Below, piece by piece: positions 16,558 to 40,987 of a stretch of 42,037 nucleotides of DNA. The notes under the pieces are model-generated. The model did not search any database and was not told where the DNA came from. It saw nothing but the letters and a program-made list of their open reading frames with translations. How positions within the stretch are numbered: position 1 is the stretch's first letter; every line of letters begins with the position of its first letter. Made by a program: the position numbers and the translations under genes. Source of the DNA: a virus (lineage: Duplodnaviria; Heunggongvirae; Uroviricota; Caudoviricetes); the IMG/VR virus record IMGVR_UViG_2721755721_000007; one strand, written 5' to 3'.

Positions 16558-17338
16558 TTACGCCAGTTGTACGGACACGAACGCATCAGGGTCAGCCAGC
16601 AGCATCAGCGGTGCTGACTGAATCATGGTGAACTCACGCGCCGGATCGCCGGTGGTCACCCAGTTTTTCGGGTAGCGGGCAGAGGCGTTAATACCTTCGC
16701 GCTGTGCGTCCGCATCCTGAATGCAGCCATAGGTGCGCAGACCGCGTGCCTGAGAGTTCCCCAGCACCATCGTGTTGTCCGGAAGGAAGTTCTTTTTGAC
16801 GTCGTTTTCCACGTACTGTCCGGAATACACGACGATCGCCGTATCGCCATACATCCCCTTATAGGACACCGCTTCGCCCAGGTCTTTTACCGCTGTCTCC
16901 AGCTCGGAATTAGAGCCGCGACGGGTATCCAGCTTCTCCTTGACGGCTTTGAAGGAACGGAACAGCGCCCAGCCTTTCGGATCAAACACGATGATATTCA
17001 CCACTCCGCTGGCGTTCAGCGCATAGGCTTCGATATCGTCGGTCGGGTCATACGTGGACTTGTCACGCTTGCTCCACTCCGTACCACCGGACTGTGTGAT
17101 GTTGTTCGCCGCACTGCGGCCCATATCCACCTCAACCGGATCGAAGGCTTCACCGGTCATGGTGTATTTGCCCTTAAGCACAGCAGAAACTGCCTGCATC
17201 TCTTCGACCTGAGCAATGGCCAGCTCTTCGTCTCGCATGTTCTGCATGATGATGCGACGGCGGCGGTAAGCCGGGTCCGCCAGATTCTGCGGATCTTCAT
17301 CCGGCAGGCGACGCAGGGTCATCTGCGGATTCACCTCA
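16558..17338 (-). pseudogene. E: 3' fragment of major capsid gene E (lambda gpE residues ~83-341), separated from its 5' part by the island
   Basis: Encodes (E)VNPQMTLRRLPDEDPQNLADPAYRRRRIIMQNMRDEELAIAQVEEM...FVSVQLA, matching lambda gpE from residue 83 to the end; no credible start or RBS (the tracked start is a GTG inside the E frame). Confidence 0.9.
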
Positions 17339-17348
17339 TGCTTCGGCT
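17339..17348. repeat. 10-bp att core / direct repeat TGCTTCGGCT (island right junction)
   Basis: Identical 10-mer at 31235-31244; flanking sequence differs, and E gene sequence resumes exactly at the repeat. Confidence 0.75.
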
Positions 17349-17482
17349 ACATGAGTCAAATATGAAAGGATGTGAATGATTTGATTACGTTTTAGCTATA
17401 GAATTGAAATGGAAAATCCTTGAATGCAATACAACGTGCAATACATGGATGAAAACCATCACTCATTTAACAAGAGGAATCT

Positions 17483-18388
17483 ATGCGCTCACCCAACAGA
17501 ATGCATGAACGCTCAACATTTTATAAGTATATGTCGTTGAATACCGCGAAGATTGTTCTTGATTCATGCAGCCTTAGATGGAGTTCTCCGGTCCTATTTA
17601 ATGACCCTTTTGATGTTCCAAGAGAAGTTATGCCTGGTATTAACGAAATTAATATTGGCAAAGCTTTAGCCCGCAAGTTAATAGCGGAGTTGATTACCCC
17701 CAGAGAAGACATACAAAATTTAAACCCTAGAATTAGAACAATGCTAAGTGATTTCCAAAAGTCATTTCCTTTAGGCATACCCGCAGGATTAATTGAAAGA
17801 TTTCAAGAAATGGTAAACATTCCACCAGTTGGGATTGGCGCTCCTGCGGCAATACAAGAAATGAAAGATGTCTGGCGAGGAATGCTTAATAACAGAAGGA
17901 TTTTGTGTTTATCTGAGAGCCCTATAATCACTCCTATGTGGAATCACTATGCCGATAAATATAAAGGTATAGTTATCGAATTGGATTGTGTAGACTTTCT
18001 GGATAGCGCTTGGTTAATAGCCAAACCTATGAAATACACAGATGAAATGCCTCTAACTCACACTGCTGAAGGGATGGCCGAGTTGCTTTTCATGCCAGAC
18101 AATAAGTCAATTGAATATATCAATAATGAGATAATATTCATAAAAACAGAAGAATGGGCATATGAAAGAGAGTGGAGAATTTCAACCTACGCTAGGCCAA
18201 ATAGCACTGGTCAATATAGCGACTTAAAATTTCACCCTTTTGAGTTAAAATCTGTAATACTTGGTCCTCTTTTTGATGCCAGCGAGTTCGATGAAGTCGC
18301 ATCACTAGTTAAAATGTATCCAAGAGCGAAATTATTTAAAAGTTCATTTGGGAACGACAGAAAAATATCCATAGTACCACTACCTTAA
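17483..18388 (+). CDS. DUF2971-like protein (301 aa), island cargo gene
   Basis: N-terminal motif FYKYMSLNTAKIVLDSCSLRWSSPVLFNDPFD resembles the DUF2971 signature as I recall it. Good RBS (GAGGA 7 nt upstream of ATG). AT-rich relative to neighbours. Function unknown. Confidence 0.6.
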   Translation: MRSPNRMHERSTFYKYMSLNTAKIVLDSCSLRWSSPVLFNDPFDVPREVMPGINEINIGKALARKLIAELITPREDIQNLNPRIRTMLSDFQKSFPLGIPAGLIERFQEMVNIPPVGIGAPAAIQEMKDVWRGMLNNRRILCLSESPIITPMWNHYADKYKGIVIELDCVDFLDSAWLIAKPMKYTDEMPLTHTAEGMAELLFMPDNKSIEYINNEIIFIKTEEWAYEREWRISTYARPNSTGQYSDLKFHPFELKSVILGPLFDASEFDEVASLVKMYPRAKLFKSSFGNDRKISIVPLP

Positions 18389-18418
18389 AAGGTCAAATGC
18401 TTTTGACAAATAAAATCT

Positions 18419-18445
18419 ATCGCCAGTTTTACTGGCGACTTTTAA
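18419..18445. terminator. Bidirectional intrinsic terminator between the convergent DUF2971 and terS-like genes
   Basis: Hairpin CGCCAG-tttta-CTGGCG flanked by A/T-rich runs on both strands. Confidence 0.45.
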
Positions 18446-18494
18446 GCAACAAAGAACCACCTAAGCACTCTTCCTACCTATGGTTTCATTTGTT

Positions 18495-19046
18495 TTAACT
18501 TCGCTGATTATCCTTGATATACCTTTCAGCCATATCTGGAATGTTATCTGAGATCTGGTAAGCTCGAATAAATGCTTTACTGACCTCCATCTTAATGAAG
18601 TCCTGATACCGTTTTTCCATGCCAGGAAACTGTCGACAGATCGCAAGTGGAAGACTATCAATGATTGCTCCAACTTCCCCAGTTAATTTCGACAAGGCAT
18701 AAGTCGCAAATGCAGTGTCAATTACCTCACCTGTTTCGCTGGCATTCTTCAGTTCCTGTGCGTCGGCCTGCGCACGCGTAAGTCGATGGCGTTCGTACTC
18801 AATAGTCCCTGGCTGGAGATCTGTCTCGCTGGCCTGCCGCAGTTCTTCAACTTCCCGGCGCAGCTTTTCGTTCTCAATTTCAGCATCCCTTTCGGCATAC
18901 CATCTTATAACGGCGGCAGAGTCATAAAGCACCTCATTACCCTTGCCACCGCCTCGCAGAACGGGCATTCCCTGTTCCTGCCAGTTCTGAATGGTACGGA
19001 TACTCGCACCGAAAATGTCAGCCAGCTGCTTTTTGTTGACTTCCAT
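18495..19046 (-). CDS. Island terminase small subunit, Nu1-like (183 aa): N-terminal ~100 aa near-identical to the prophage Nu1, C-terminal ~80 aa divergent
   Basis: MEVNKKQLADIFGASIRTIQNWQEQGMPVLRGGGKGNEVLYDSAAV... matches the prophage Nu1 (36879..37424) to about residue 100, then diverges but stays alignable. Confidence 0.85.
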   Translation of the reverse strand: MEVNKKQLADIFGASIRTIQNWQEQGMPVLRGGGKGNEVLYDSAAVIRWYAERDAEIENEKLRREVEELRQASETDLQPGTIEYERHRLTRAQADAQELKNASETGEVIDTAFATYALSKLTGEVGAIIDSLPLAICRQFPGMEKRYQDFIKMEVSKAFIRAYQISDNIPDMAERYIKDNQRS

Positions 19047-19267
19047 TGTTCATTCCACGGACAAAAACAGAGAAAGGAAACGACAGAGGCCAAAAAGCTC
19101 GCTTTCAGCACCTGTCGTTTCCTTTCTTTTCAGGGGGTATTTTAAATAAAAACATTAAGTTACGACGAAGAAGAACGGAAACGCCTTAAACCGGAAAATT
19201 TTCATAAATAGCGAAAATCCGCGCGCCTGACGCCCCGTAGCCTGTCAGATCGCCGGAAAGGACCCGC
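18739..19267. repeat. ~0.53 kb segment near-identical to the prophage nu1 5' half plus cosB (copy of 37117..37643)
   Basis: Aligns base-for-base with 37117..37643 apart from a few substitutions and a divergent cosN block. Confidence 0.85.
19060..19240. other. Island cos site: cosB-like Nu1-binding repeats identical to the prophage, cosN region altered
   Basis: R-site-like GGAAACG repeats as in lambda cosB. At the cosN position (19225-19236) the island reads cgcctgacgccc where the prophage reads aggtcgccgccc (5 of 12 differ). Confidence 0.7.
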
Positions 19268-19291
19268 CAGCCAGAGCGGGCCCTAATTTCA

Positions 19292-19675
19292 TCAACCAAT
19301 CAGCTTATAGCGACCATCCCGTGCATTGCGGCGTACACGCTCAATCTTGAGGCATAGCGCCGCATCTGGCTTTTTTGGGACAGGTACGCGGCAATATTCA
19401 GAAGCGCGAGGAATATTATTTATCCAGTCGATCACTTCACTTAAATACCAGGCCTTACGCCCTTCCGTAACCTGCACACGCTCCGGGAACTCTCCACTAG
19501 CCTCAAGGTTTAGCAGTGTACGCCGACTCAGGGTTGTAATTTCCATCACCTGATTCATATCAACAAGGCGCTCGCTTAAACACATTTTGTCAGCGATAGC
19601 TTTTAATTCCTCTACAGCTGGATTCGGGTACATCATTTCGGCAATTGGCTTAAGGTCATTGTAATCATTTTGCAT
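19292..19675 (-). CDS. AlpA/excisionase-like HTH DNA-binding protein (127 aa)
   Basis: C-terminal half MEITTLSRRTLLNLEASGEFPERVQVTEGRKAWYLSEVIDWI resembles the phage AlpA-family HTH. Confidence 0.55.
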   Translation of the reverse strand: MQNDYNDLKPIAEMMYPNPAVEELKAIADKMCLSERLVDMNQVMEITTLSRRTLLNLEASGEFPERVQVTEGRKAWYLSEVIDWINNIPRASEYCRVPVPKKPDAALCLKIERVRRNARDGRYKLIG

Positions 19676-19686
19676 TGTATCCCCCT

Positions 19687-20028
19687 TTACACACGAGCCA
19701 GCGGCTGAACAGAAATACCTGAGCCAACAAACGCTGCAATCTTTACTGACAGTTCTTTTACAGACTCAGGCCAGTTCAGAGCATCAACATTTAAGACACC
19801 TGTCTTATAGACCTGAGCCTGTGTTTTTTTCGCGGTGTCGATTTGTACAGCGGAAACATAAACCGCTTTACCTACGCTCGAACCATCCCATACCACCAGT
19901 GCACCTGTTGCATCTTCCTGCATCAGTGGCGTAAATGCAGGAATTACCCCTTTATTAGCTGAAAATATCCCCAGCGTAGTCACCAGTGCTTCAGTGCCAG
20001 CCATGAGTTCAGTGTAATGAGTAGCCAT
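19687..20028 (-). CDS. Head decoration protein, lambda gpD homologue (113 aa), island-encoded
   Basis: TPLMQEDATGALVVWDGSSVGKAV... aligns with lambda gp[28 protein letters not shown]; similar length. Confidence 0.7.
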   Translation of the reverse strand: MATHYTELMAGTEALVTTLGIFSANKGVIPAFTPLMQEDATGALVVWDGSSVGKAVYVSAVQIDTAKKTQAQVYKTGVLNVDALNWPESVKELSVKIAAFVGSGISVQPLARV

Positions 20029-20037
20029 TGCTCCCCC

Positions 20038-21078
20038 TTAGCCAATGCGAACGGTAACAAAACGATTGATGCGGGCCGGTATTGGCTGTGGTGCTGAATG
20101 TGTCTGCACATATTCAATAGCCGGATCACCAGGCACAATATAGTTTTTCGGTGCAAGTTCGGCTTTAGTCAGCCCCATTCGGATTAGCTCCGGATCCTGA
20201 ATACCGCCATAGGCGACAATCCCCTGAAGAGCCGTATTGCCAAGCACCATCAAATCAGGATCAAGGAAATGTTTTTCAGTTCCGTCCTCGTCGGTATAAC
20301 GCCCGCTGTAAACAACAATCGCAACATCGCCCATATATCCTTTAAAACTCACCGAATCACCAAGGTCTTTAAGGGCCGTTTCCAGTTCGGAATTAGAACC
20401 ACGACGGGTATCCAGAGCCTCTTTTATCGCTCTGAATGAACGGTATTTCTTCCATACATTACCGCCCATAATGATGATATTAGTGACGCCCTCACTAAAT
20501 TCTGCGTAGCTCTCAATATCATCATTTGGATCAAAAGTTTCTTTATCCTTACCTGACCACTCAGTACCGCCAGACTGAGTGATGATATTTTGTGGTTTAA
20601 TATTCCAGTCCAGCTCATAACGTTCAATACCATCGCCCTCAATGATATTTTTCCCCGTTGTGATTGCCTGAACGGCAAGCCATTCAATACGTGCACGAAT
20701 AGCTTTAGCTTGATTTACAATCGCCTGTTTAACTTTAATATTACGCGCCCCAAAAGCATTGTATTGCTCAGGTGATACACCAGCAGGGCGCACAGCTAAC
20801 TTATTTGGATCAATGCTGCTTTTCGGCTTCATATAGCCTGGACGAATTGTTTTTGATTCGTACCCTTCGTCACGTGAAACTTTACTACCCACCATAGGAG
20901 AACAAAACGCTGCAATTGGGATATTTGGATCGTCGATTGTATCAAGAATAATATCGCGCGATCCAAACATTACCGAGCGAGTAAAAAACAAACTGGTAAA
21001 CAACGCATTTAGTTGTTTTTGTACATCTACAGCATTAACCACCTGTACAAGCTGGGTAGGCGAATATAAATCAACCAT
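20038..21078 (-). CDS. Major capsid protein homologue, lambda gpE family (~346 aa), island-encoded
   Basis: About 50% identical to lambda gpE over the C-terminal two-thirds (ITQSGGTEWS..., DTRRGSNSELETA.KDLG, GDVAIVVYSG). Start taken at MVDLYSPTQ, with AAGAGG 6 nt upstream; the tracked ORF extends a further 71 codons. Confidence 0.85.
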   Translation of the reverse strand: MVDLYSPTQLVQVVNAVDVQKQLNALFTSLFFTRSVMFGSRDIILDTIDDPNIPIAAFCSPMVGSKVSRDEGYESKTIRPGYMKPKSSIDPNKLAVRPAGVSPEQYNAFGARNIKVKQAIVNQAKAIRARIEWLAVQAITTGKNIIEGDGIERYELDWNIKPQNIITQSGGTEWSGKDKETFDPNDDIESYAEFSEGVTNIIIMGGNVWKKYRSFRAIKEALDTRRGSNSELETALKDLGDSVSFKGYMGDVAIVVYSGRYTDEDGTEKHFLDPDLMVLGNTALQGIVAYGGIQDPELIRMGLTKAELAPKNYIVPGDPAIEYVQTHSAPQPIPARINRFVTVRIG

Positions 21079-21252
21079 ACGCATCCTCTTTGCATTCATT
21101 AAAAATAATTGTGGATATATGCTATCACCGATATTTGTCATGCGAACACATGCAACCGAGTGCAATGTTGTATAAAGTTTTGGGGTGACAACTTCAGTGC
21201 GGACAATTAGTGTTAATATCTTCACTCCCTTTGGTCGGGATTTATGTAGCAT

Positions 21253-21283
21253 GCCGGAAAATTTATTTTTTCCGGCTTTTTTT
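21253..21283 (+). terminator. Terminator-like hairpin oriented against the island late operon
   Basis: GCCGGAAAA-tttatt-TTTTCCGGC followed by TTTTTTT on the plus strand, in the SSB/capsid-homologue intergenic region. Confidence 0.4.
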
Positions 21284-21294
21284 ATTGGCAATAT

Positions 21295-21744
21295 TTAAAA
21301 CGGGATATCATCTCCCCATTGCTCATTATCTCCCTCTGGTGGCTGGCTTCCTTGCTGATCTGCCTGTTGTTTTGCTCTGTTCAGTGCGTCAGTAGCCTGC
21401 CCCTGTTGGCCTTTTTTGCCGCCCGGTCGCACCGATCGCGCACTGATTACGCTGTCTGCGATAACCTGCCAGCCCTGCCGCGTTTCGCCGTTCTGTCCAG
21501 TCCACTGGCTCATCTGCATGTTACCCGCCACGCTCAGGAGTTCGCCTTTGTGATGCTTTGCCAGCGCGTCGGCTTGTCTGCCAAACGCCAGGACAGATAA
21601 CCACAACGTCGCCAGACCGTCATCCGACTGACTGCAGGGCAGTGATACCGCCATACGCGCCAGCGTCATGGGGGTGCCCTTGCTGGTCTGTTTTGTCTGC
21701 GGGTCGTCCACCAACCGCCCGTAAACTGATATTTGCGCCGTCAT
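21295..21744 (-). CDS. ssb: Single-stranded DNA-binding protein (149 aa)
   Basis: OB-fold-like N-terminus, Gly/Gln-rich linker and the acidic C-terminal tail ...WGDDIPF typical of bacterial and phage SSB. Confidence 0.8.
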   Translation of the reverse strand: MTAQISVYGRLVDDPQTKQTSKGTPMTLARMAVSLPCSQSDDGLATLWLSVLAFGRQADALAKHHKGELLSVAGNMQMSQWTGQNGETRQGWQVIADSVISARSVRPGGKKGQQGQATDALNRAKQQADQQGSQPPEGDNEQWGDDIPF

Positions 21745-21998
21745 GCTGCCTGCTCTCCGGACTTAATATTGATTGTTGTCACTTCCTCCGCTTCAGCAAT
21801 CTCCCGTTCGGTCAGCGTGGCAAAGTTTGCAGCCGCCGTTGTCATGAATGCGCTTATCAGTTCGGGATGTGCTTTCGCGTATCCTTCCCCGGCGTTGCGG
21901 TCTATTGCCTTAATCGCCACCCTTAGCCAGTGTTCAGCCATATCAAGGGCGCGGTAATGTGGCTTTATATGTTTGTTCAGTTTTCCTGATGTGTGCAT
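21741..21998 (-). CDS. Hypothetical protein (85 aa)
   Basis: ORF tightly coupled to ssb (4-nt overlap); no recognised motif. Confidence 0.4.
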   Translation of the reverse strand: MHTSGKLNKHIKPHYRALDMAEHWLRVAIKAIDRNAGEGYAKAHPELISAFMTTAAANFATLTEREIAEAEEVTTINIKSGEQAA

Positions 21999-22039
21999 TT
22001 TTATTTTTACCCCCTCGTTTAAAAAGTTTTTTGTGCACC

Positions 22040-22277
22040 ACCACCTTGTCTACCTTGTCTACCTGATTAGTTATCAGGCCAGTAATGGCGCGGGTTTCAG
22101 GGAGGTAGACAGCCCCAAATAGCTGTCTACCTCATCTCTACCCGTCTCCTTACCTGTCTACAAAAATGGGTAGATAAGGTAGATAACAGGTAGACAGTGA
22201 AAAATAGTTATCTACCTGCATTAATACATTGAAATAAAAGTATTTTCTTTCAGTCAGGTAGACAAGGTAGATAACCA
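22040..22277. repeat. Iteron array, putative island replication origin
   Basis: At least 10 copies of an 8-bp GGTAGA(C/T)A motif in both orientations within ~240 bp, immediately 3' of the primase-helicase gene. Confidence 0.75.
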
Positions 22278-22287
22278 TTGCCATTTT

Positions 22288-24039
22288 TTATAAAAACGCA
22301 TCGCAATCATCAGTAGTCGTTGCGTTGGTCTGCGTGACTCCCTTAACTTTTCGCGTAATATATTCATATCCGTAAACTTTCGCCGCTGACCTCATAGCCT
22401 TTCCGAACTCATTCACGCTCAAACATTTCCCCTTTCCTGTGTATGCCATGAAGGCCATATAGACACGGTAAAGGCTGTTTCTGGTCGTGTACTTCACGGT
22501 GTCACCACCACCGCCCATCATTAGCCCACGAGCTTCCTCCAGAAACTCCAGCGCCGCGCAAAGCTCAACAACCGGATCCGTTTGCTGCTTTATTGCCAGA
22601 GCTTCATCACCGTCACGCTGTTCCAGTAATAAAGCCCGTGCCTTTTCAGGGGCAGCAAAATTAGCCAGCAAGCGGCGGATAATTACGGGGATTTCTGCCG
22701 CTATCTTTTCCGGTAATTCCTTGTCTTTTTCGTCCTCCCTTACAATGTTGTCGAACCGGAAAATCACCCGACGGCGTGACACACCTCCGGCCCGTTCGGT
22801 AAAGATCATCGGGTCGTTATTGGTTGCCAGTACCACCGCCCTTATTATCGTCGTGAATCGCTTCTCATATTTCGGGTTAATTTCAACGGGATCGCCTCCC
22901 GTGATTTTCTTGATGCCCGTGCCTTCCCCCGTATATTTCGGCTGATCGGCAAGGACGATAAGACGACTCCCGACAACCTGCGCGCGCCCTCCTGCATCAT
23001 CGAGTGATGTCATCTCCGCGCTTACGGTGTTCTGTTTGCCAGCAAGCAGGGTGGCAATATGGGTAAATGTACTCTTACCGCTTCCCCCGTCTCCGGTGGC
23101 CTCAATGAACATCTGCCAGTCGTAGCGGTTCGCCATAATCATGTATAACGCGGCACATATACGCATCATCTTACGCGGGTCTTTTCTTGCAGCATGTTCA
23201 AGCCATTTATGGAAATTTGGCGCATTATCGCGGATGTTTTCCCCTGCTACTGGTGGCGTGTACTCAATGCCATTGTGCGTGGTGCTCCAGTGCTCCGGCG
23301 AGTGCGGAGAAAATTCCCCCGTTTTCAGGTTAAGCACACCATTAGTGAACGGTAGCAAATCACCGGACGGCTCCCCCATGGGGTCGGCAATAACTTTTAA
23401 CGCTTCCACGGCGTTATTGATTACACGTTTGCTGAACGTGGCCCTGTGCTCTGAATAGATCGCCACCATTTCGCGGCTCAGCTCCATTGTGCTGACCGGA
23501 CACCATACCCCGCCGCGCCATACGTGGACGATTTCACTTTCTGCATGAACACACACACCATCAAAGCGATCGGCAAGTAGTTGTGCACGTTCACTGTCTG
23601 CCATCTGTGAAAGTTGCGCCTTTTGCTTCGTCGGAAGATTAAGCACCAGACTTTCCCCACGCTCGCATTCCTCTTTGAGTCGCGGCAACTGCTCGGATAA
23701 ATCCACTGGGCTGGTGTCAGTAATCCCCGCGTATTCGTGTACGGTCTTCACTCCAGCCACAGCCAGTAACGTAACAATCTGCGTCATGCTGTGCTCTGTG
23801 ATATGTCCTGCGCGGTAAACACGCACACACTGACGATCTTCATCAATGATCCGGTAATCGGTGATATTTTTCAGTTGCTCATCAGCCAGCACGACAGGCG
23901 GCACATCGTCGGCGGCAATATGTTTACCCGCCCATTCCCGCCACTCTTTCGCATGGCTCCACGCATCACTACCTGCAAAGATGATTACCTCTGTCAGTCT
24001 GTCGCGTGGCTGTTTTTTTAAGTTCGGTGCCAGTTTCAT
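22288..24039 (-). CDS. Primase-helicase (P4/D5-like, SF3 helicase domain), 583 aa
   Basis: Walker A GDGGSGKST and layout typical of the P4-family primase C-terminal domain; positioned as a PICI pri-rep gene next to the iterons. Confidence 0.8.
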   Translation of the reverse strand: MKLAPNLKKQPRDRLTEVIIFAGSDAWSHAKEWREWAGKHIAADDVPPVVLADEQLKNITDYRIIDEDRQCVRVYRAGHITEHSMTQIVTLLAVAGVKTVHEYAGITDTSPVDLSEQLPRLKEECERGESLVLNLPTKQKAQLSQMADSERAQLLADRFDGVCVHAESEIVHVWRGGVWCPVSTMELSREMVAIYSEHRATFSKRVINNAVEALKVIADPMGEPSGDLLPFTNGVLNLKTGEFSPHSPEHWSTTHNGIEYTPPVAGENIRDNAPNFHKWLEHAARKDPRKMMRICAALYMIMANRYDWQMFIEATGDGGSGKSTFTHIATLLAGKQNTVSAEMTSLDDAGGRAQVVGSRLIVLADQPKYTGEGTGIKKITGGDPVEINPKYEKRFTTIIRAVVLATNNDPMIFTERAGGVSRRRVIFRFDNIVREDEKDKELPEKIAAEIPVIIRRLLANFAAPEKARALLLEQRDGDEALAIKQQTDPVVELCAALEFLEEARGLMMGGGGDTVKYTTRNSLYRVYMAFMAYTGKGKCLSVNEFGKAMRSAAKVYGYEYITRKVKGVTQTNATTTDDCDAFL

Positions 24040-24335
24040 TTTTTGCCCCTGAATGCGTTAATCATGCTTTTCATTTTCTGGATGTTTCCCCGCGCTTTTT
24101 CCCTGCTGATGGGCTTACTGCGGGGTGCGGCATATACCAGGGAAAAATCACGCCGGAACTGATAAACAGGCATCACGCAGTCATAGCTATACCCCTCACG
24201 GCGGTAAGTGATGCGCCGTTCTGCCACGCCTTTAATCGTTACTGTGCCGCCGTATTTATCGCGGTAAATATCGCCGTTCATAAATTCAGGCCGAGCGGGG
24301 CCGCTGGCAATAAAGCCAGAATTTTTCATTTCCAT
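24036..24335 (-). CDS. Hypothetical protein (99 aa), translationally coupled to the primase
   Basis: ATGA overlap with the downstream primase start; no recognised motif. Confidence 0.45.
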   Translation of the reverse strand: MEMKNSGFIASGPARPEFMNGDIYRDKYGGTVTIKGVAERRITYRREGYSYDCVMPVYQFRRDFSLVYAAPRSKPISREKARGNIQKMKSMINAFRGKK

Positions 24336-24352
24336 ATTATTTATTCCTCGAC

Positions 24353-24574
24353 TTAACTCGACTTATTTGATAGCAGGGCACTATTTATTGCGTCATTGAG
24401 TTTTTCTGCTGATTCATCAATAAGTGACAACAGGCCATAAGCAATATTTGCATCTTCATTGTCATTTATGCAATCAAGCCACATATTTAATATTGCTTTT
24501 GCTGAATTATTTAAAGTTAATGAACTTTCTGCACATGCTAACAATTTAAAAAAGACTTCCCGTTCTGTATTCAT
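24353..24574 (-). CDS. Hypothetical small protein (73 aa)
   Basis: Part of a head-to-tail run of small ORFs in the island early operon; AT-rich. Confidence 0.35.
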   Translation of the reverse strand: MNTEREVFFKLLACAESSLTLNNSAKAILNMWLDCINDNEDANIAYGLLSLIDESAEKLNDAINSALLSNKSS

Positions 24575-24766
24575 TTAATCCCCCACCAGCTTACTTTCTT
24601 CCTCAATCAGGAAACTAGCGACACTTCCCGAAAGGCGCGCCAGTAGGCTCGCCAGCGCGGATATATCAGCATCTGTAATTTTGTTCGGGTATACCTCAAG
24701 AAGGCGGCAAATAATTTCTGTCTGGTGCGCACGTTCAGCGGCTTCGTGTAATGTGATTTCCTGCAT
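24575..24766 (-). CDS. Hypothetical small protein (63 aa)
   Basis: Tightly packed ORF in the same operon. Confidence 0.35.
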   Translation of the reverse strand: MQEITLHEAAERAHQTEIICRLLEVYPNKITDADISALASLLARLSGSVASFLIEEESKLVGD

Positions 24767-24951
24767 TAATGCACCTCTTTTAATTCATACACTGCTGAAA
24801 TAATGACTTGTGATAAGCCATATTCTGATGATTCGCTTCTCACCGCAGCAATAGCCGTCTGAACATTAACAGCCTTCACGTTCTGAGTGATACCAATTGT
24901 GTGGCCCAGTGGGTTAACAGCTCGGGCAAATACACGGAAGGTTTTAAGCAC
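24766..24951 (-). CDS. Hypothetical small protein (61 aa)
   Basis: Tightly packed ORF in the same operon. Confidence 0.35.
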   Translation of the reverse strand: MLKTFRVFARAVNPLGHTIGITQNVKAVNVQTAIAAVRSESSEYGLSQVIISAVYELKEVH

Positions 24952-25207
24952 GGCACACCTCCTGACGAATACGGGCGGCGAATATCATCACGTAGCCAGT
25001 TGGGGATTGCTGGCGGGCTTCCTGTTCGCTGGCGGCCTCGATGTGTATTACGCGTGGTTGTGCGGTGCTCAGGGCGATAAAACGCCAGATGTATTTATTC
25101 AGGTTGTGCGAATCCCGCCCTTGCGGGTGTGTGGTATGATTTCTCATAGCTACCTCGATACTGTTGCTATCGTTGGTGGTTAGACGCCCTGTATGTGTTG
25201 CGAGCAC
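24944..25207 (-). CDS. Hypothetical small protein (up to 87 aa; start uncertain)
   Basis: First ORF of the leftward operon, divergent from the RHH gene; an internal Met (MRNHTTHPQ...) is a possible alternative start. Confidence 0.35.
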   Translation of the reverse strand: MLATHTGRLTTNDSNSIEVAMRNHTTHPQGRDSHNLNKYIWRFIALSTAQPRVIHIEAASEQEARQQSPTGYVMIFAARIRQEVCRA

Positions 25208-25244
25208 TGCAGGGCGTTGTTATATAGCAATAAAACATGATAAG

Positions 25245-25286
25245 GTGTGTACCTATCAAGAATCATACTAAGCAATAGGTACACAC
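25245..25286. promoter_or_regulatory. Perfect 12-bp inverted repeat (GTGTGTACCTAT-N18-ATAGGTACACAC) abutting the RHH start codon; putative operator
   Basis: Read directly; arms at 25245-25256 and 25275-25286, lying in the divergent intergenic region between the early operon and the RHH gene. Confidence 0.55.
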
Positions 25287-25481
25287 ATGTCAACTATCAT
25301 TCAACGTGATAAACAACCGAAAGGTGCAGGTAAAGCACCAGCATTCCAAGTCCGTATTAACCCAGAATTAAAAGAACAAATGGTTAATGTCGCTGCCAAA
25401 GAAGGGATGAGCTTAGGTAACTGGCTAAAAGAACTGGCTCGTGCCGAACTAATAAAACAAGGAATAACACCTAAAGGCTGA
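25287..25481 (+). CDS. Small ribbon-helix-helix (CopG/Arc-like) DNA-binding protein, 64 aa
   Basis: Predicted beta-strand FQVRINPELKEQM followed by helices VNVAAKEGMSLGNWLKELARAEL; typical RHH layout. Confidence 0.6.
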   Translation: MSTIIQRDKQPKGAGKAPAFQVRINPELKEQMVNVAAKEGMSLGNWLKELARAELIKQGITPKG

Positions 25482-25504
25482 TAATTTGCATAAAGGATTC
25501 TTCT

Positions 25505-26854
25505 ATGACAACAAGTCACAAAATGCTAGAAATCAGTAAAGAACAATTTGATGTATTTTTCTATGGTCGTACACCATACGTAAAAACCTTTTCGGAGGAA
25601 ATCTGTTGGTTCAAATTTATAAAGGATGATGTCACGATCTTAGCAACAATTGTTTTTTGTAAAATAGATAATGATTACAACGCTATATTTCTAGGTAGGG
25701 ATTTAGATAAAAAATTTAGAGCGATTAAAGTAATTGTATCCCGTGAATCTAAAGATGATTTAATTACTGATATGGAAAAAGCCATACCAGAGCTATTATC
25801 ACTACACAAGAACGGTTGTTTTATACAGGGTGACGAATCAGAGTCGGCATTTTCAATATTCCTAGCCAAAGTTCCAGAACATAAAAAAAACGTTTATCTA
25901 AGAATGCTACTTGAGGAACCCAAACACTATCCTGCATTTATTGTTATGCAAGAGTTAGCTTATTGGTGTAAAGATCCTGATGGAATATTCATCAGAGATT
26001 TCCAGAGTGCTTCATTTAACTCTCGCTTATTCGAACTTTATCTAAACGCAGTTTTCTACGAAATGGATTTCGTAATATGCAGAGATTATGCTCAACCTGA
26101 TTATATTATCTCAAAAAATGGCATTGATATTGCTGTAGAAGCTGCCACAGTTGCAGAACAAGAGGAACCTACCGAGAAATTGATACTTGATCATGAGGCA
26201 GTAGAAGATCTTCAGAGATATGTAAAAGAACAAATGCCATTCAAATTTGCCCGCACTCTATTAAAGAAAGTTAGGCATAAACCTGAACCCTTAAAATTAT
26301 GCTATTGGGAACTAGATCATACAAAAGGAAAGCCTTTCATTATTGCTTTACACGATTACTCACGCAGATTTTCGATGAGTATATCAATGCCAGCACTACA
26401 AAGCTATCTGTATGGTGTAGATATGGATTCTGGAAGTAAAATTGAACAACATTTATTTGAAAATCGAAGTATACAATCTAATTTTTTCGGCTCTAATAAA
26501 AATGAGAATGTCTCAGCCATATTACTTGCGACACATGCCACCATCCCAAAATTTGATAGGATGGGAGTAGTGGCAGGGATTGAACAAAAAAATGTCAAAT
26601 CCATCGTTAGAGGTATTAAAACTGATGAAGGCTGTACCCCAATGCCTTTTACTGCTCTTGTCAATGCACCTTCATATCAAGAACCATGGTGTACAGCAAT
26701 ATACATGTTTCATAATCCGAAGGCATTAAATCCTATACGCCCTGAATTATTCCCAAGAGTTATTCATATTTTTGAAGAAGATGGAGAAATAGTTCAATAC
26801 TTACCACCTAATTATATAATCTCATCAACTACGCACGTATTTGAATTTAAGTGA
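25505..26854 (+). CDS. Orphan protein of unknown function (449 aa), co-oriented with and 24 bp downstream of the RHH gene
   Basis: Long uninterrupted ORF in a markedly AT-rich segment; no Walker A, HEPN, or other motif I can recognise. Confidence 0.6.
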   Translation: MTTSHKMLEISKEQFDVFFYGRTPYVKTFSEEICWFKFIKDDVTILATIVFCKIDNDYNAIFLGRDLDKKFRAIKVIVSRESKDDLITDMEKAIPELLSLHKNGCFIQGDESESAFSIFLAKVPEHKKNVYLRMLLEEPKHYPAFIVMQELAYWCKDPDGIFIRDFQSASFNSRLFELYLNAVFYEMDFVICRDYAQPDYIISKNGIDIAVEAATVAEQEEPTEKLILDHEAVEDLQRYVKEQMPFKFARTLLKKVRHKPEPLKLCYWELDHTKGKPFIIALHDYSRRFSMSISMPALQSYLYGVDMDSGSKIEQHLFENRSIQSNFFGSNKNENVSAILLATHATIPKFDRMGVVAGIEQKNVKSIVRGIKTDEGCTPMPFTALVNAPSYQEPWCTAIYMFHNPKALNPIRPELFPRVIHIFEEDGEIVQYLPPNYIISSTTHVFEFK

Positions 26855-26905
26855 TTTCAAATCCTATGGGTTTACCCCATAGGATTACATCCACTGTCTA
26901 AATTC

Positions 26906-27127
26906 TTACCACTCTCCCCTAATCCATGCCTGCACTTCTGAAAGACGATATGCAACAGCAGTGGAACCAATCTTGATCCGCTTAGGAAATTTTCCTTCCT
27001 TCTCCAGCTTCCAGCGTGTGCTGTTCGCAAGAGTGGTTAGCTCCCGACATTCTTTCTCACGGATCATACGATCGATATTAGGAATGTACTCCAGACCCTT
27101 TTTATCGACAATTGCCATTTTTTTCAT
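26906..27127 (-). CDS. alpA: AlpA-family transcriptional regulator (73 aa)
   Basis: MKKMAIVDKKGLEYIPNIDRMIREKECRELTTLANSTRWKLEKEGKFPKRIKIGSTAVAYRLSEVQAWI is a typical AlpA HTH. Confidence 0.8.
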   Translation of the reverse strand: MKKMAIVDKKGLEYIPNIDRMIREKECRELTTLANSTRWKLEKEGKFPKRIKIGSTAVAYRLSEVQAWIRGEW

Positions 27128-27176
27128 GTTAACCAGCCTTTTGTTTGTAAGCGACTCGTCAGAACCGTATTGATAT

Positions 27177-28748
27177 TTACTGAGAGCTCAGATCAACTTT
27201 CCAGGGCAACAGATCGCGTACCCGGTTTGCCGGCCAGTCCTGGATATGTTCAATGACGTAACGCAGCCACTTTTCTGGCTCCACATTGTTCAGACGGCAT
27301 GTGCCGATCAGCGAGTACAACACCGCCGCATGTTCACCACCGCTGTCGGAACCCGCGAACATCCAGTTTTTCCGGCCTACGGCCACTCCCCGTAAGGCGT
27401 TCTCTGCGATGTTGTTGTCGATTTCCACCCAGCCATTACTGCAGTACACGTTCAGTGCATCCCACTGTTTCAGCAGGTATGCGAACGCTTTTGCCGTATC
27501 TGAGTGACGCGACAGTGTTTTCATCTGTTGCTGTATCCAGTCATACAGTGACTGCATCAGTGGCGCGGCTCTGGCTTTTCTTGCCGCCAGACGCTGTTCT
27601 GCTGAACAGCCCCGGACCTCTGCCTCGATGGCATACAGTTCACCGATACGCTGCAGGGCTTCCGTGGTGATGTAGGTGGGCGCTCTTGCATGCACATCGT
27701 GGATTTTTCTCCGGGCATGAGCCATACACGCGGCTTCCGTTATTCTGCCGGATTCGTATAACGCCCGGTAACCACCGTAAGCATCGGCCTGAAGCACACC
27801 GCTGTAACCGGCCAGGTGATTTTGTGGATGGATACCTTTCCGGTCCGGACTGTACGCGAACCAGACCGCCGGGGGCATCTGTGAACCGGCGTTACGGTCA
27901 TCACGGACGTAGACCCACAGCCGGGCTGTCCGGGTTTTACCGCTGCCCGGCTCCTGGACCGGGACGGGGATATCATCAGCATGGACTTTACCGGGCATCA
28001 GCACATACTGGCGCAGGACGTCATACAGCGGCTCCAGCAGTTCAGCAACAGCACCTGTCCAGCGCCCCAGTGTGGCACGGCTCAGCTCCACTCCCTGACG
28101 ACGGTATATTTCTGACTGGCGGTATAACGGCAGATGGTCTGCATATTTCCCGGTGACAACATGGGCCAGAAGCCCCGCTCCGGCATAACTGCGTGCAATG
28201 GGTTTTGAAGGTACTGGTGCCTGCACGATATGGTCGCACCGGCAACAGGCCTGTTTCGGACGTTGTGTTTCGATAACCTTAAAGGCGCTGCTGATAAGCT
28301 CCAGTTGCTCTGACACATCACATCCCAGAGAACTGAGTTCACCACCACAGGCAGGACAGCATTCCTCTTCCGGCCGGATAACCCGGGTTTCACGGGGAAG
28401 TGAGGCCGGTAACGGTTTACGGGCTGAAGACTGGCGCAGGGCGGATGGCAGTACCGGGTCATATTGCTCACCCAGCGTTTCCGCCATTTCTTCCTGAAGT
28501 GCGCTGATTCGCTCCTGTGCTTCCTGTATCTGCCGTTCGGTTTTTGCACGAAGTTTTTCTGAGCTTTTACCGAACTGCATACGTTGCAGTTTCGCAACCA
28601 GCGCCTTCAGCCGGTTGATTTCGGAAGCATAAGCCGCCACCCGCTGTGAGAGCAGGCGGTTGTATTCAGCCATCTGGCGGATGGTGTCCTGTTGCGTCTG
28701 CAACAGTGCCCGCAGGCGGGCGTTCTCATGAGCAAGTGAGGTGTCCAT
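27177..28748 (-). CDS. IS66-family transposase TnpC (523 aa)
   Basis: Leucine-zipper-like N-terminus, CxxC...CxxC zinc-finger region and DDE core typical of IS66 TnpC. Confidence 0.85.
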
Positions 28749-28767
28749 ATCCTCACTTTACAACGGG

Positions 28768-29115
28768 TTATATGCGGATTCCAGCGCGTTCCGTTCGTTT
28801 CGGGTGCTTCCAGTTGATACCTTCAAGAAGCATGGATAACTGAGCCGGAGTAAGGTGCACCTTGCCGTCACGGGTGACTGGCCAGACGAAGCGGCCCCGC
28901 TCCAGGCGTTTGGTGAAGAGGCACAGTCCGTCACTGTCAGCCCACAACACTTTTATCTGGTCACCCCGGCGTCCGCGGAAGATGAACAGGTGTCCGGAGA
29001 ACGGGTCATCCTTCAGGACGTTCTGAACTTTTGATGCCAGGCCGTTAAAGCCATTTCGCATATCGGTGATACCTGCAACCAGCCAGATACGCGAACCTGC
29101 AGGGAGAGATATCAT
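28768..29115 (-). CDS. IS66-family TnpB (115 aa)
   Basis: MISLPAGSRIWLVAGITDMRNGFNGLASKVQ...HLFIFRGRRGD is the conserved IS66 Orf2. Confidence 0.85.
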   Translation of the reverse strand: MISLPAGSRIWLVAGITDMRNGFNGLASKVQNVLKDDPFSGHLFIFRGRRGDQIKVLWADSDGLCLFTKRLERGRFVWPVTRDGKVHLTPAQLSMLLEGINWKHPKRTERAGIRI

Positions 29116-29792
29116 CAGTGGCTGCTCCCTTTTATTTCGCGGATAAGTGTCTGTAATAACGCCGGCGTCAGTTTACCTTTAAGCCTGAGAGTTCCGGCCG
29201 GCAGAACCAGCTCACAACACAGACTGTCGGACGGTGTATTTATCTGCTCTGGTTCCTGTGCGGGGGCCGGGATTTTATTATCCGGCTCCGGCGTTAACGT
29301 CACGGGAAGCAGTGCCGGCATATTTTTTCCGGAAGGCAGCAGGCCACCTTTCCGGTATTGATGGCGCCAGTTGAAGAGCAGGTTATCGTTGATTCCGTTT
29401 TCCCGGGCGATCTGCGCCACACAGGCTCCGGGCTGTAGTGACTGCTCCACTAAGGCGATTTTAAACTCATAAGGGAAGTTGGGCCGCCGGGGACGTTTTT
29501 TTACCACGGGGGCTTCGGATATAACGGTGCTTTCAGGACGTACGACTGGTACCGTGGAAAATTGTCCGTAAAGGCAGGCATCAAGTTCCTGCTCCGACAT
29601 GCCTGCGGGCAAAGGCCACGAAAGGCCAGCTCTCCGAAAGCGCACGAACATACTACAAACTGTTGATTTTGGTACACTCAGGCGACGCCCGGCCACAACC
29701 CGGGGTAAATGTTCTTCAAAGTGAAGACGTAAAGCTTCAGTGATCCAGGTCCGGTGTTTCATACGATAGTGTCCATTAAAAATGATGGACAT
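29115..29792 (-). CDS. IS66-family TnpA/Orf1-like HTH protein (start uncertain; tracked ORF 225 aa)
   Basis: Contains the HTH motif PGACVAQIARENGINDNLLFNWRHQYRKGG typical of IS66 Orf1; the long N-terminal extension may not all be translated. Confidence 0.6.
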   Translation of the reverse strand: MSIIFNGHYRMKHRTWITEALRLHFEEHLPRVVAGRRLSVPKSTVCSMFVRFRRAGLSWPLPAGMSEQELDACLYGQFSTVPVVRPESTVISEAPVVKKRPRRPNFPYEFKIALVEQSLQPGACVAQIARENGINDNLLFNWRHQYRKGGLLPSGKNMPALLPVTLTPEPDNKIPAPAQEPEQINTPSDSLCCELVLPAGTLRLKGKLTPALLQTLIREIKGSSH

Positions 29793-31072
29793 TATTTTTG
29801 TAGAGCCGGAGGAAACAGACCAGACGGTTTAAATGAGCCGGTTACCTTTTGTTTGAGGATTGTCACTTTTGAATCAGCACCTGCGATGCTATTGAGATAT
29901 GTAGTCCAGAGTTCCAGAGCATCCAGTTTTTTAGCCATAAACTTACTCCGGTTGTAAACACCTGCCACGCCAGGTAGCGCATGGCCTAACAGTTGTTCTA
30001 CTACATAAAATTCAACACCGAGATCACTTAGATGAGTAGATAGCGTTCTTCTAAGGTCGTGTAGTGACCATTGTTTTTCATGGCCCAAACGTTTACCGAT
30101 TTTCCCCCCAATCTTGCTTACGCTTTCTCTAATTCGCAGACTTCCCAGCACATAACCAGTATGTTTTGTCTCTTCGTGAACATCCGTTACCCACTGTCGT
30201 AGAATTTCAGGTACTGGTCTGACGATTTCAACACCAGTTTTTGAGTGATCTTTTGGTACAGTCCAAACCCAACTTTCGAGATCCCATTCGCTCCATTCTG
30301 ATAATCGGGCTTCACTCATTCGACATCCAAATACTGTACAAAGCACAAACATTTTTCGCGTGTATTCAGACATTAGTTTTAAATCAGGCTCGACAAAAAT
30401 TGCCTTCCAGAGCTGGCCGAGTTCGGCTTCATCCAGAACCCGATCCCGCTTACCTGCAATCTGCCCCACATCACTCATGCGCAAATCCTTTAAAGCATCA
30501 CACGTCGCGTACTGGCGTACCCGACAAAAACGAAGAGCTAATTTAGTGTCAGAAAAAACATACGCCGCCATAACTGGTGCATTACGTTTAATTCGGTCAA
30601 AACAGTCCAGCCATTCATATAGGTGAGTGTCATTTACGGGCAAATGACCGATATAGGGAAAGATATGCTTTCGAAATCTGCCAAGCGTTACAGCATGAGT
30701 TTTACGACGCACCTTACAGTAATTTTCATACCAGTAATTTAGTGCATCCTCCACTGTGACCGGCTTTAAGCGTTCTTCAGCCTGAATCTTAATCTGGATA
30801 CGCGGATCACGTTTGTCAGCCAACCAACCACGGCACTCGTCGCGCTTTTCCCTTGCCTGTTTGAGTGACATATCAGGATATTTACCCAACGTTAGCCAGA
30901 CCGGAGCAGCCCGGCCACCTGCTAACCTGTAGAAGAAAACAAAGCTCACAGCCCCTTTAGTACTCACACGAATAGAAAGCCCCTTTCCATCAGCAATGGT
31001 GATCTGCTTTTCTCTGGGTTTCCCCAGATATCCTTTAAGCGCTTTGTCGCTCAGTTTGTTCTCGCCAGCCAT
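29792..31072 (-). CDS. int: P4-type tyrosine integrase; native 3' end interrupted by the IS66 at ~29846
   Basis: H-x-x-R box (HDLRRT), LLGH and a conserved Tyr in GVYNR near the C-terminus. Start taken at MAGENKLSDK. The reading frame runs into the IS, adding ~18 foreign codons. Confidence 0.85.
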   Translation of the reverse strand: MAGENKLSDKALKGYLGKPREKQITIADGKGLSIRVSTKGAVSFVFFYRLAGGRAAPVWLTLGKYPDMSLKQAREKRDECRGWLADKRDPRIQIKIQAEERLKPVTVEDALNYWYENYCKVRRKTHAVTLGRFRKHIFPYIGHLPVNDTHLYEWLDCFDRIKRNAPVMAAYVFSDTKLALRFCRVRQYATCDALKDLRMSDVGQIAGKRDRVLDEAELGQLWKAIFVEPDLKLMSEYTRKMFVLCTVFGCRMSEARLSEWSEWDLESWVWTVPKDHSKTGVEIVRPVPEILRQWVTDVHEETKHTGYVLGSLRIRESVSKIGGKIGKRLGHEKQWSLHDLRRTLSTHLSDLGVEFYVVEQLLGHALPGVAGVYNRSKFMAKKLDALELWTTYLNSIAGADSKVTILKQKVTGSFKPSGLFPPALQK

Positions 31073-31234
31073 TTTTAGCCCCAAAAAGCAATACAAGCTG
31101 CAATACAGAGATGATTGCAACACACAGATAACGAGGAAAATTCAGTGAAAGCACCAGATAAACTTATTCTTTATTATCAAAAGATTAAGTGTAAAAACCA
31201 GCAACTACACGAAAGCCTCAGAAAGCCATGCTAA

Positions 31235-31244
31235 GTGCTTCGGC
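31235..31244. repeat. 10-bp att core / direct repeat TGCTTCGGCT (island left junction)
   Basis: Identical to 17339-17348; capsid gene E sequence resumes on the far side. Confidence 0.75.
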
Positions 31245-31480
31245 TTGACATATCCCGGTGTAAATTCAGAGGTGGAGCCGCCACGGGAGCGGATAACCTC
31301 ACCGGAAACAATCGGCGAAACGTACAGCGCCATGTTTACCAGTCCCGGAATTTGTGAGAGATAGACTTTCTCCGTGGTGAAGGGATAGCTCTCACGGAAA
31401 AAGAGACGCAGAAACAGCGGATCAAACTTAAATTTCTTCTCATTTGCCGCCAGCAGCTGGGCGGTTGTGTACATCGACAT
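31235..31480 (-). pseudogene. E: 5' fragment of major capsid gene E (codons 1-82), reading into island DNA to a stop at 31205
   Basis: MSMYTTAQLLAANEKKFKFDPLFLRLFFRESYPFTTEKVYLSQIPGLVNMALYVSPIVSGEVIRSRGGSTSEFTPGYVKPKH matches the lambda gpE N-terminus, then 9 foreign codons (LAWLSEAFV). Confidence 0.9.
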
Positions 31481-33197: not shown

Positions 33198-36878
<3,681 letters not shown>

Positions 36879-36904
<26 letters not shown>

Positions 36905-37424
36905 TCAGCAACCCCGGTATCAGTTCATCCAGCGCGGCTGCTTTGTTCATGGCTTTGATGATATCCCGTTTCAGGAAATCAACATGTCGGTTTTCCAGTT
37001 CCGGAAAACGCCGCTGCACCGACAGGGGGATCCCGTCGAGAATACTGGCAATTTCACCTGCGATCCGCGACAACACGAAAGTACAGAATGCGGTTTCCAC
37101 CACTTCAGCGGAGTCTCTGGCATTCTTCAGTTCCTGTGCGTCGGCCTGCGCACGCGTAAGTCGATGGCGTTCGTACTCAATAGTCCCTGGCTGGAGATCT
37201 GCCTCGCTGGCCTGCCGCAGTTCTTCAACCTCCCGGCGCAGCTTTTCGTTCTCAATTTCAGCATCCCTTTCGGCATACCATTTTATGACGGCGGCAGAGT
37301 CATAAAGCACCTCATTACCCTTGCCACCGCCTCGCAGAACGGGCATTCCCTGTTCCTGCCAGTTCTGAATGGTACGGATACTCGCACCGAAAATGTCAGC
37401 CAGCTGCTTTTTGTTGACTTCCAT
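36879..37424 (-). CDS. nu1: Terminase small subunit Nu1 (181 aa)
   Basis: Matches lambda gpNu1 over its full length. Confidence 0.9.
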
Positions 37425-37439
37425 TGTTCATTCCACGGA

Positions 37440-37620
37440 CAAAAACAGAGAAAGGAAACGACAGAGGCCAAAAAGCTCGCTTTCAGCACCTGTCGTTTCC
37501 TTTCTTTTCAGGGGGTATTTTAAATAAAAACATTAAGTTACGACGAAGAAGAACGGAAACACCTTAAACCGGAAAATTTTCATAAATAGCGAAAACCCGC
37601 GAGGTCGCCGCCCCGTAACC
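37440..37620. other. Prophage cos site (cosB R-sites, cosN, cosQ side)
   Basis: Sequence matches the joined lambda ends as I remember them; the 12-nt cohesive-end sequence is present as its reverse complement AGGTCGCCGCCC at 37602-37613, between Rz-side DNA and nu1. Confidence 0.8.
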
Positions 37621-37812
37621 TGTCGGATCGCCGGAAAGGACCCGCAAAATGATAATAATTATCATCTGCATGTCACAACGTGCATCTACGCCATCAAACC
37701 ACGTCAAATAATCAATTATGACGCAGGTATCATATTAATTGATCTGCATCAACTTAACGTAAAAACAACTTCAGACAATACAAATCAGCGACACTAAATA
37801 CGGGACAACCTC

Positions 37813-40537: not shown

Positions 40538-40606
40538 CATGACGCTGGAAAATCCATCGCCAGAGCTGCTCACAGTGTTGATCCGTGAACTGACCGGGAG
40601 GGGAAG

Positions 40607-40957: not shown

Positions 40958-40987
40958 AAAACTCCTGACCGCATTATAAAAACGGTC

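Follow-up and report, generated by a model that had tools for sequence, protein, structure and literature searches.

This analysis concerns a packaging module, a cos site followed by a gene (terS) for a small terminase subunit (TerS), that is carried by an island within a lambda-like prophage. The DNA is IMG/VR virus record IMGVR_UViG_2721755721_000007, the whole 42,037 nucleotides of which are termed the window here. The prophage, the helper in what follows, lies on the minus strand in the order cos, Nu1, A, W, B, C, D, E, FI ... J, and its major capsid gene E is interrupted, with nt 1-272 at 31507-31236 and nt 268-1053 at 17343-16558. Between the halves, both of which match Pfam Phage_cap_E, sits an island of 13.9 kb (17339..31245, minus strand) with a 10-bp core, TGCTTCGGCT (AGCCGAAGCA on the gene strand), at each boundary (17339-17348 and 31236-31245). 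The island has a complete lambda-family cos, without a large terminase subunit (TerL).

Its genes begin with a tyrosine integrase, a 2.7-kb insertion of the IS66 insertion sequence (IS) family, AlpA and a PD-T7-1 defence gene, continue with small open reading frames (ORFs) and a DUF4222 protein, a D5-type primase and SSB, and end with gpE-like and gpD-like head proteins, an AlpA-like helix-turn-helix (HTH) protein, cos, terS and a convergent DUF2971/PDC-S31 gene. Such a layout is known from helper-embedded phage-inducible chromosomal islands (HE-PICIs), a class described with its prototype, Eco567.11capE of Escherichia coli NRG857c, by Tommasini, Mageeney & Williams in 2023 (PMC10111431). The insertion in E, the core at both junctions and the late genes on the same strand as E place the island in the site group E:Phage_cap_E. 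Its integrase points inward (29792-31123; Pfam Phage_integrase and Arm-DNA-bind_3) and is followed by alpA (26906-27127; Pfam Phage_AlpA), though the IS66-family element now intervenes. HE-PICIs are further recognized by four zones, for integration, accessory/Bro genes, replication (primase/SSB/DUF5906) and captured phage late genes, without tail genes; here the D5_N/DUF5906 primase, SSB and gpE-like, gpD-like and Nu1-like products fall into this scheme, colinear with 11capE of NRG857C. Judged by its sequence, the region is the packaging module of an HE-PICI of the capsid-E site group, and the island/helper pair a composite of an already known kind. It is not an assembly artefact, since the identical arrangement is present in many independent complete genomes.

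A duplicated cos-terS block and a chimeric TerS

Comparison by BLAST of two regions of the window aligned 18736-19267 with 37114-37645, 532 bp at 97.4% identity with 14 mismatches and no gaps, which bears out an earlier note's description of some 0.53 kb of the island as nearly identical to the 5' half of prophage nu1 plus cosB. Read on the minus strand, the block extends from cosQ (GGGTCCT) via cosN and the whole of cosB (R3, R2 and R1) to codon 102 of the Nu1-family gene, beyond which island terS and helper Nu1 are still colinear with 113 mismatches in 240 nt (53% DNA identity). Eight of the 14 mismatches crowd into 30 bp about cosN (p about 5e-6 by permutation): besides those in the overhang there is one at bp 18, and two are in the cosQ-cosN spacer. 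The helper counterparts, all on the minus strand, are its cos (37425..37643, comprising cosB, the cosN overhang GGGCGGCGACCT at 37602-37613 and cosQ at 37637-37643), Nu1, its 181-aa TerS and the donor of the 5' half of island terS (36879..37424), and TerL (gpA, 641 aa, 34979..36904), the sole large terminase in the window.

Island terS (18495..19046, minus strand) is an intact ORF for 183 aa, the first 162 of which match Pfam Phage_Nu1 (PF07471) at E=3.6e-84. Its two parts have different affinities. Codons 1-102 (18741..19046, minus strand), for a DNA-binding domain of winged-HTH type and long helix, derive from the helper: they differ from the window's own Nu1 at 4 of 306 nt, with K48R and A75T the sole amino acid changes, so that the view that the island TerS has the helper's DNA-binding domain stands, and residues 1-98 match lambda TerS nearly exactly (PDB 6HN7_B; also 1J9I). 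Codons 103-183 (18495..18740, minus strand), for the oligomerization and presumed TerL-binding region, are identical to those of sister islands (0/240 nt mismatches); at the protein level they share about 40% with Nu1 (34/85 counted from the LKN motif), for which 45-50% had been an overstatement. Solved structures cover no Nu1-family protein beyond about residue 100. A PADLOC match of the TerS N-terminus to 'mad1' reflects the shared HTH only and was set aside.

From where did the C-half come? The phage genomes, 50,697 in number, offer nothing closer than 40% amino acid identity, and in none of them is the island C-half followed by TerL. Of 5,426 complete E. coli genomes, 32 have it with an identity of no less than 99.6%; among 5.8 billion proteins nine relatives came up at E <= 0.001, each a short or partial entry named 'terminase small subunit'; and in IMG/VR it is found in islands only, with no large terminase after it at any locus that could be checked (14 loci and further contexts, three loci not being covered downstream). 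Klebsiella homologues were considered as donor phages and rejected, as those whose context was covered are truncated remnants beside defence genes instead of phage terminase operons. Since E. coli and Klebsiella diverged the C-half has been under purifying selection, with dN/dS against Klebsiella copies of 0.31 (81 codons) and 0.07 (49 codons). A related island, embedded in E (L200/L201), has a native full-length TerS of 170 aa with a different winged-HTH and its own cosB, and the C-half of the L200 protein is 81% identical to that of the window. Since this native TerS carries the same type of C-half, the window's terS is a chimera in which a lambda-type Nu1 (residues 1 to about 100) is joined to a TerS lineage that is satellite-only; the recombination junction is within a motif conserved across these TerS, RLTxAQADAQELKNA.

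A near-identical N-half with a divergent C-half invites the thought of interference, in which the chimera would form heterodimers with Nu1 by way of the shared residues 1-102 and so poison or retarget the terminase, an Rpp-like effect with cosB unchanged. Residues 1-98 of lambda TerS do form both the dimer and the interface for heterodimerization with RppC (PDB 6HN7; PMC6739421; PMC9026076), and the chimera diverges from Nu1 in just the regions for oligomerization and TerL binding. However, island and helper have one cosB between them, so that poisoning would strike packaging of the island equally; no experiment hints at interference, and loss of the gene is frequent, all of which leaves such a role quite improbable.

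The island cosN allele

The island cos is of the lambda family in all its parts: a cosQ heptamer (GGGTCCT, 19259..19265, identical to prophage cosQ at 37637-37643), a 12-bp cosN with conserved flanks (cohesive end GGGCGTCAGGCG, 19224..19235) and a cosB (19047..19223) of R3-I1-R2-R1 order directly before terS, with R3 at 19170-19185, R2 at 19111-19126, R1 at 19071-19086 and the I1 region between R3 and R2, the whole on the minus strand. These subsites align base-for-base with the prophage cos, and in the overhang GGGCGTCAGGCG of the island at 19224-19235 and GGGCGGCGACCT of the prophage at 37602-37613 differ, as had been noticed, at five of 12 bases, namely bp 6, 8, 9, 10 and 12.

It had been suggested from this that the island, by adding a private cosN, a private TerS-TerL interface or both to the recognition module of the helper, biases cleavage or packaging toward itself. 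Composites of island and helper were compared for the window and 12 others (n=13). The variant allele is present in 11 of the 12 islands compared, regardless of which cosB/TerS module follows, with the lambda allele in all 12 of the helpers; the window has kept it though the conversion tract ends some 20-50 bp away, and the C-half is both satellite-specific and invariant. So far the suggestion fares well. But the islands of A37 and L193 have the lambda allele, and GGGCGTCAGGCG turns up outside islands as well: the exact allele is at 57 IMG/VR loci, and at three of these (L025, L059 and L070) it belongs to a prophage cos, beyond which lie Nu1 and TerL that are 99-100% identical to those of the window's helper. 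The head-gene cluster of L059 is uninterrupted, and L025 has its upstream flank in common with the helper. A deposited phage, PhiR46_1, has the related cosN GGGCGGAAGGCG, equal to that of the island at bp 8-12, and a TerL identical to the helper's at 636 of 641 residues; altogether the helper TerL is identical at 635-639 of 641 residues to TerL of prophages or phages that use three different cosN alleles. The claim of a private cleavage site does not survive this.

Of the five changes four are within bp 7-12, the tolerant half, and G6T alone is outside it. These positions are commonly variable among lambda-like phages (N15, gifsy-1, mEp213/LLS; PMC4669245, PMC12315714), right-half mutations in lambda cosN have minimal effect on cleavage where left-half ones are severe, and lambda and N15 terminases display no cosN specificity (PMC4669245). 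With the changes so largely in the right half, the variant is most likely no obstacle to helper TerL and would not be a specificity device. Neither is discrimination apparent at the recognition step, the DNA-binding domain and cosB being the same in island and phage, and bias by way of a C-terminal interface is weakened by the frequency with which island terS is inactivated. We know of no TerS that alters the nuclease specificity of TerL, a further count against a private site. Taken together this makes a packaging bias from private cosN or interface very improbable. By its distribution the variant cosN is an allele ancestral to the island family and not part of the window's chimera, and the difference, striking as it is in raw sequence, is probably ordinary polymorphism. 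Given L025, L059 and L070 it is possible that the allele also passes from island to helper by recombination.

The allele GGGCGTCAGGCG is not described in the cosN-polymorphism literature represented by PMC4669245 and PMC12315714, which does not extend to Vahanian et al. 2017. A scan of species-representative genomes with TACGGGGCGNNAGGCGCGC gave, among 80 of 117 loci, almost all chance matches in GC-rich genomes. One helper has a lesion at its own cosN: in E. coli 184/2aE (L001, near locus position 31570) the overhang is AGGCGGCGACCT, with G-to-A at its first base in the sensitive left half, which suggests that this helper is packaging-defective. Other helpers are visibly defective elsewhere, that of 95-3322 having a protease stop and that of A37 a TerL annotated as frameshifted.

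Exchange with the helper, loss of terS and a probable route into capsids

How do these islands vary in cos and terS? The default state, that of 184/2aE, 95-3322 and 980-2, is the variant cosN with the island's own lambda-like cosB, roughly 7-15/171 from those of helpers, and a TerS that starts MEANKK. MLI106K3, 382634_2f, E1 and SCU-102 are the same with a shared stop, W22*; the window has cosB converted to that of its helper; A37 has undergone a wholesale swap to the 21-like module of its helper; NRG857C has lost terS after about codon 12; and K56-43-un, PK8275 and C 237-04 have a private cosB with a private 180-aa TerS. The varied cosB and TerS states, together with terS loss, mark the segment downstream of cosN as a mosaic hotspot, of variable cosB, variable or absent TerS and variable cargo (DUF2971/PDC-S31, HEPN+DUF262, Abi).

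The direction of transfer can be read from the distances. The window's island cosB differs from that of its own helper at 1 of 171 positions, from other helpers at 3-7 and from sister islands at 9-11, and because it is near its own helper and farther from both other groups, the transfer was from helper to island. In 184/2aE the terS 5' half has one mismatch in 306 nt to its own helper and 5-17 to other helpers. In A37 (L010, NZ_CP029327; 19477-20246 and 3920-4706) the helper has a 21-like cosB and a Nu1 in which a 21-like DNA-binding domain precedes a lambda-like C-half; its island is identical to it in cosN, cosB and codons 1 to about 75, after which comes the usual island C-half. Recombinational capture of the helper's recognition module, as the earlier note had it, is thus upheld by the distances and by the A37 swap: the window's cosB and codons 1-102 are a copy from the resident lambda-type prophage made by homologous recombination, and the process is episodic. 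That each island is closest to its own helper was tried as a general rule and rejected (p = 0.4 for cosB, 0.2 for the terS 5' half and 0.11 for both, by permutation over six lambda-type composites); because of this non-significance discrete capture events, in the window, 184/2aE and A37, are all that is claimed, and not continuous concerted evolution. MLI106K3 and E1 have 21-like helpers, but their islands have lambda-like cosB and an inactivated terS.

The third type of module (L203-L205, which are K56-43-un, PK8275 and C 237-04, at 19500-20480; also L023 and L040) has the variant cosN, an unrelated short cosB and genes for the 180-aa TerS-like protein WP_000766228, with a different winged-HTH, and for a 91-aa ORF. 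Sequences 80-90% identical to it are present in about 640 E. coli genomes and are possibly ordinary prophage terminase regions. A match between satellite TerS C-type and helper TerL type was also entertained and rejected, as third-type TerS is found in helpers with lambda-type TerL and in one helper with a TerL only 65% identical.

How, then, may the island be packaged? The reading that we hold to be somewhat better than even is that helper terminase packages multimers of this HE-PICI, with the chimeric TerS an optional adaptor for recruitment of TerL that is not essential. The island would excise, replicate and form concatemers; TerS dimers, from helper Nu1, the chimera or both, the DNA-binding domains being practically identical, would bind island R3, R2 and R1; helper gpA would nick island cosN; and about three island units (3 x 13.9 kb = 41.7 kb) would fill a phage-size head, ending at cosQ/cosN. 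Where the chimera takes part, its satellite C-half would recruit helper TerL, and that it still does so is most likely, since sister islands with private cosB and TerS, and without TerL, reside in lambda-type helpers, where their TerS would have to work with the TerL of the helper. For the prototype island of NRG857c excision and replication have been shown (PMC10111431), and packaging of multimers in full-size heads was shown experimentally for the PICI EcCICFT073 (PMC6092414; precedent also in PMC10111431).

A good deal weighs against this reading. Virions of the NRG857c prototype's helper went undetected by its discoverers (PMC10111431), and the IS66-family insertion at the int/alpA junction may have immobilized the present island copy by impairing excision. 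The prophages at L025, L059 and L070, on which the ordinariness of the cosN allele leans, are not proven viable, and, as the permutation p of 0.11 over the six lambda-type composites indicates, similarity of island to own helper is not general. The last ~40 residues of TerS, where we infer TerL binding, are about 30% identical to Nu1. The gene is, besides, often absent or broken. The island-type C-half occurs at 18 non-redundant loci, with terS intact at 11 and stopped by the same W22* at seven; NRG857C keeps 12 terS codons only; and of about 50 IMG/VR islands with the variant cosN roughly 30 have no TerS-like ORF (eight have the chimeric type of TerS and nine the third type). By this count island terS is dispensable for persistence and optional in the island family.

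The W22* change is TGG-to-TAG at codon 22 (L009, L011, L013 and L014, with L020, L038 and L060 from IMG/VR), and the sharing of one stop points to a single spreading lineage in which terS is inactivated or amber-interrupted. In MLI106K3 and E1 it coincides with a helper of 21-like cosB specificity.

Is island terS then a decaying relic, its helper-like 5' half a by-product of gene conversion, with packaging wholly the work of helper Nu1 and gpA? The seven W22* copies, the NRG857C deletion, the many islands without a TerS-like ORF and the truncated Klebsiella copies are what such neutrality would lead one to expect, and since cosB adjoins the region that encodes the DNA-binding domain the two would be co-converted anyway. 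Yet the ORF is intact in the window and in 11 of the 18 copies, purifying selection has acted on the C-half (omega 0.07-0.31, E. coli-Klebsiella), and sister islands retain an intact private TerS with private cosB in lambda-type helpers, where their own TerS would be needed. We regard the relic account as a serious but doubtful alternative. Unlikely, to a degree beyond that, is a more elaborate reading in which the satellites carry a dedicated TerL-capturing TerS C-domain onto which recombination plugs the cosB and DNA-binding domain of the resident helper; if true, it would be a modular means of tracking helper packaging specificity. On this reading the cosN allele, its cohesive ends mismatched to those of the helper at 5 of 12 bases, could insulate island from helper chromosomes, for instance by rendering non-cyclizable any DNA packaged from island cos to helper cos of the unexcised composite, for which the packageable length is about 45 kb.

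The module can be set beside several known systems. The island resembles 11capE in its E site, 10-bp core and cosN allele and in the order int, alpA, accessory genes, primase, SSB, gpE-like, gpD-like, HTH and cos. It differs in that 11capE has terS gone after about codon 12, leaving a 64-aa ORF and then HEPN/DUF262 genes; what the window's island has beyond 11capE is the intact chimeric terS, DUF2971, the helper-converted cosB, the PD-T7-1 gene and the IS66-family insertion. 11capE is stated to lack terS, a 258-bp, 90% match to the helper cos being the sole remark on cos, and the cosN allele and TerS chimera go unmentioned in the main text of that paper (PMC10111431). With the cos1/Rpp system of EcCICFT073 (PMC6092414, PMC6739421, PMC9026076) there is in common a cos-type PICI of E. 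coli with a lambda-like helper, a winged-HTH gene related to TerS downstream of cos, a need for helper TerL and multimers that fill full-size heads. The logic, however, is the reverse: EcCICFT073 has cosN and cosQ conserved, a cosB unrelated to the helper's and an Rpp of 139-154 aa without a TerL-binding tail, whereas in the window cosB (1/171) and the DNA-binding domain are the helper's, cosN is different (5/12) and the gene is a full-length Nu1 homologue, matched by RppC at E=0.038 only and over the HTH.

The TerS of Staphylococcus aureus pathogenicity islands (SaPIs) is likewise a satellite small terminase, and the window's would like it use the helper large terminase, but SaPI packaging is of the pac-type headful kind with its own DNA specificity and the chimera belongs to a cos system with helper specificity. 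No satellite-specific site is present in the window; the sister islands with private cosB and TerS do have one and fit SaPI logic. No Ppi-like blocker was identified in the island. Laboratory hybrids of lambda and 21, in which a DNA-binding N-half and a TerL-binding C-half of different specificities are joined mid-TerS (PMC9026076), have natural counterparts with a 21-like N-half in the A37 island and helper; the window's chimera differs in being natural, in a satellite and with a C-half lineage that has no cognate TerL. As in natural cosN polymorphism (N15, gifsy-1, mEp213/LLS) the changes are mainly in bp 7-12 with flanks and cosQ conserved (PMC4669245, PMC12315714), the island allele being distinct in differing at five positions, bp 6 included, and in its strong association with one island family. 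PICI-encoded terS homologues as such are already known (PMC6092414). The TerS chimera, the satellite C-half lineage, the swaps of modules with helpers that differ in specificity and a cosN allele associated with islands were not found described in the literature.

Two satellite routes into helper capsids are known, a private TerS with its site (SaPIs) and Rpp retargeting helper TerS to a private cosB (E. coli PICIs). The present family shows a third and more fluid case, with cosB and the DNA-binding half of TerS exchanged with the helper while the C-half stays constant. Were TerL capture the function of the C-half, nature would have supplied a means of mapping where TerS and TerL of lambda meet, an interface still unsolved, and one could understand how embedded satellites follow helpers that differ in packaging specificity.

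Insertion sequences, cargo and late genes of the island

The IS66-family element (2.7 kb, 27148-29844) lies between island alpA and int, has TnpA-like, TnpB and DDE transposase ORFs and is flanked by the repeat CCTTTTGTTTG. It displaces the last few int codons, so that the int ORF runs on into the IS, and sister islands have no such insertion. A second IS66-family-like stretch near the right end of the window (40229-42037; ORFs 40229-40537, 40607-40957 and 40988-42037) includes an inverted 260-bp match of 76.5% to the TnpB region of the island element (28859-29116 vs 40606-40863).

Upstream of cos are the island late genes (19292..21291, minus strand), assigned by Pfam matches and the annotation of relatives: the AlpA-like HTH gene at 19292-19675, the gpD-like decoration protein gene at 19687-20028 and the gpE-like major capsid protein gene, an ORF at 20038-21291 that is annotated as 346 aa in relatives. 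The island thus brings its own capsid and decoration genes (19687-21291, minus strand) while it disrupts helper E, and a 119-bp patch of helper E is 75.6% identical to island E (16843-16960 vs 20326-20443). Between the convergent terS and DUF2971 genes is a terminator-like hairpin (18419..18439, minus strand) that has a stem of 9 bp and then a T-run; the scan gave no other match, and with shuffled sequence averaging 1.7 it is weak evidence alone.

The defence cargo has two positions. A PD-T7-1 homologue at 25505-26854 (plus strand) is detected by PADLOC at E=1e-153 and is without a Pfam match, and the DUF2971 protein at 17483-18388 (plus strand) matches the candidate system PDC-S31 at E=3e-31. 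In sister islands the same two positions are occupied by HEPN+DUF262, Abi, TIR and a second DUF2971.

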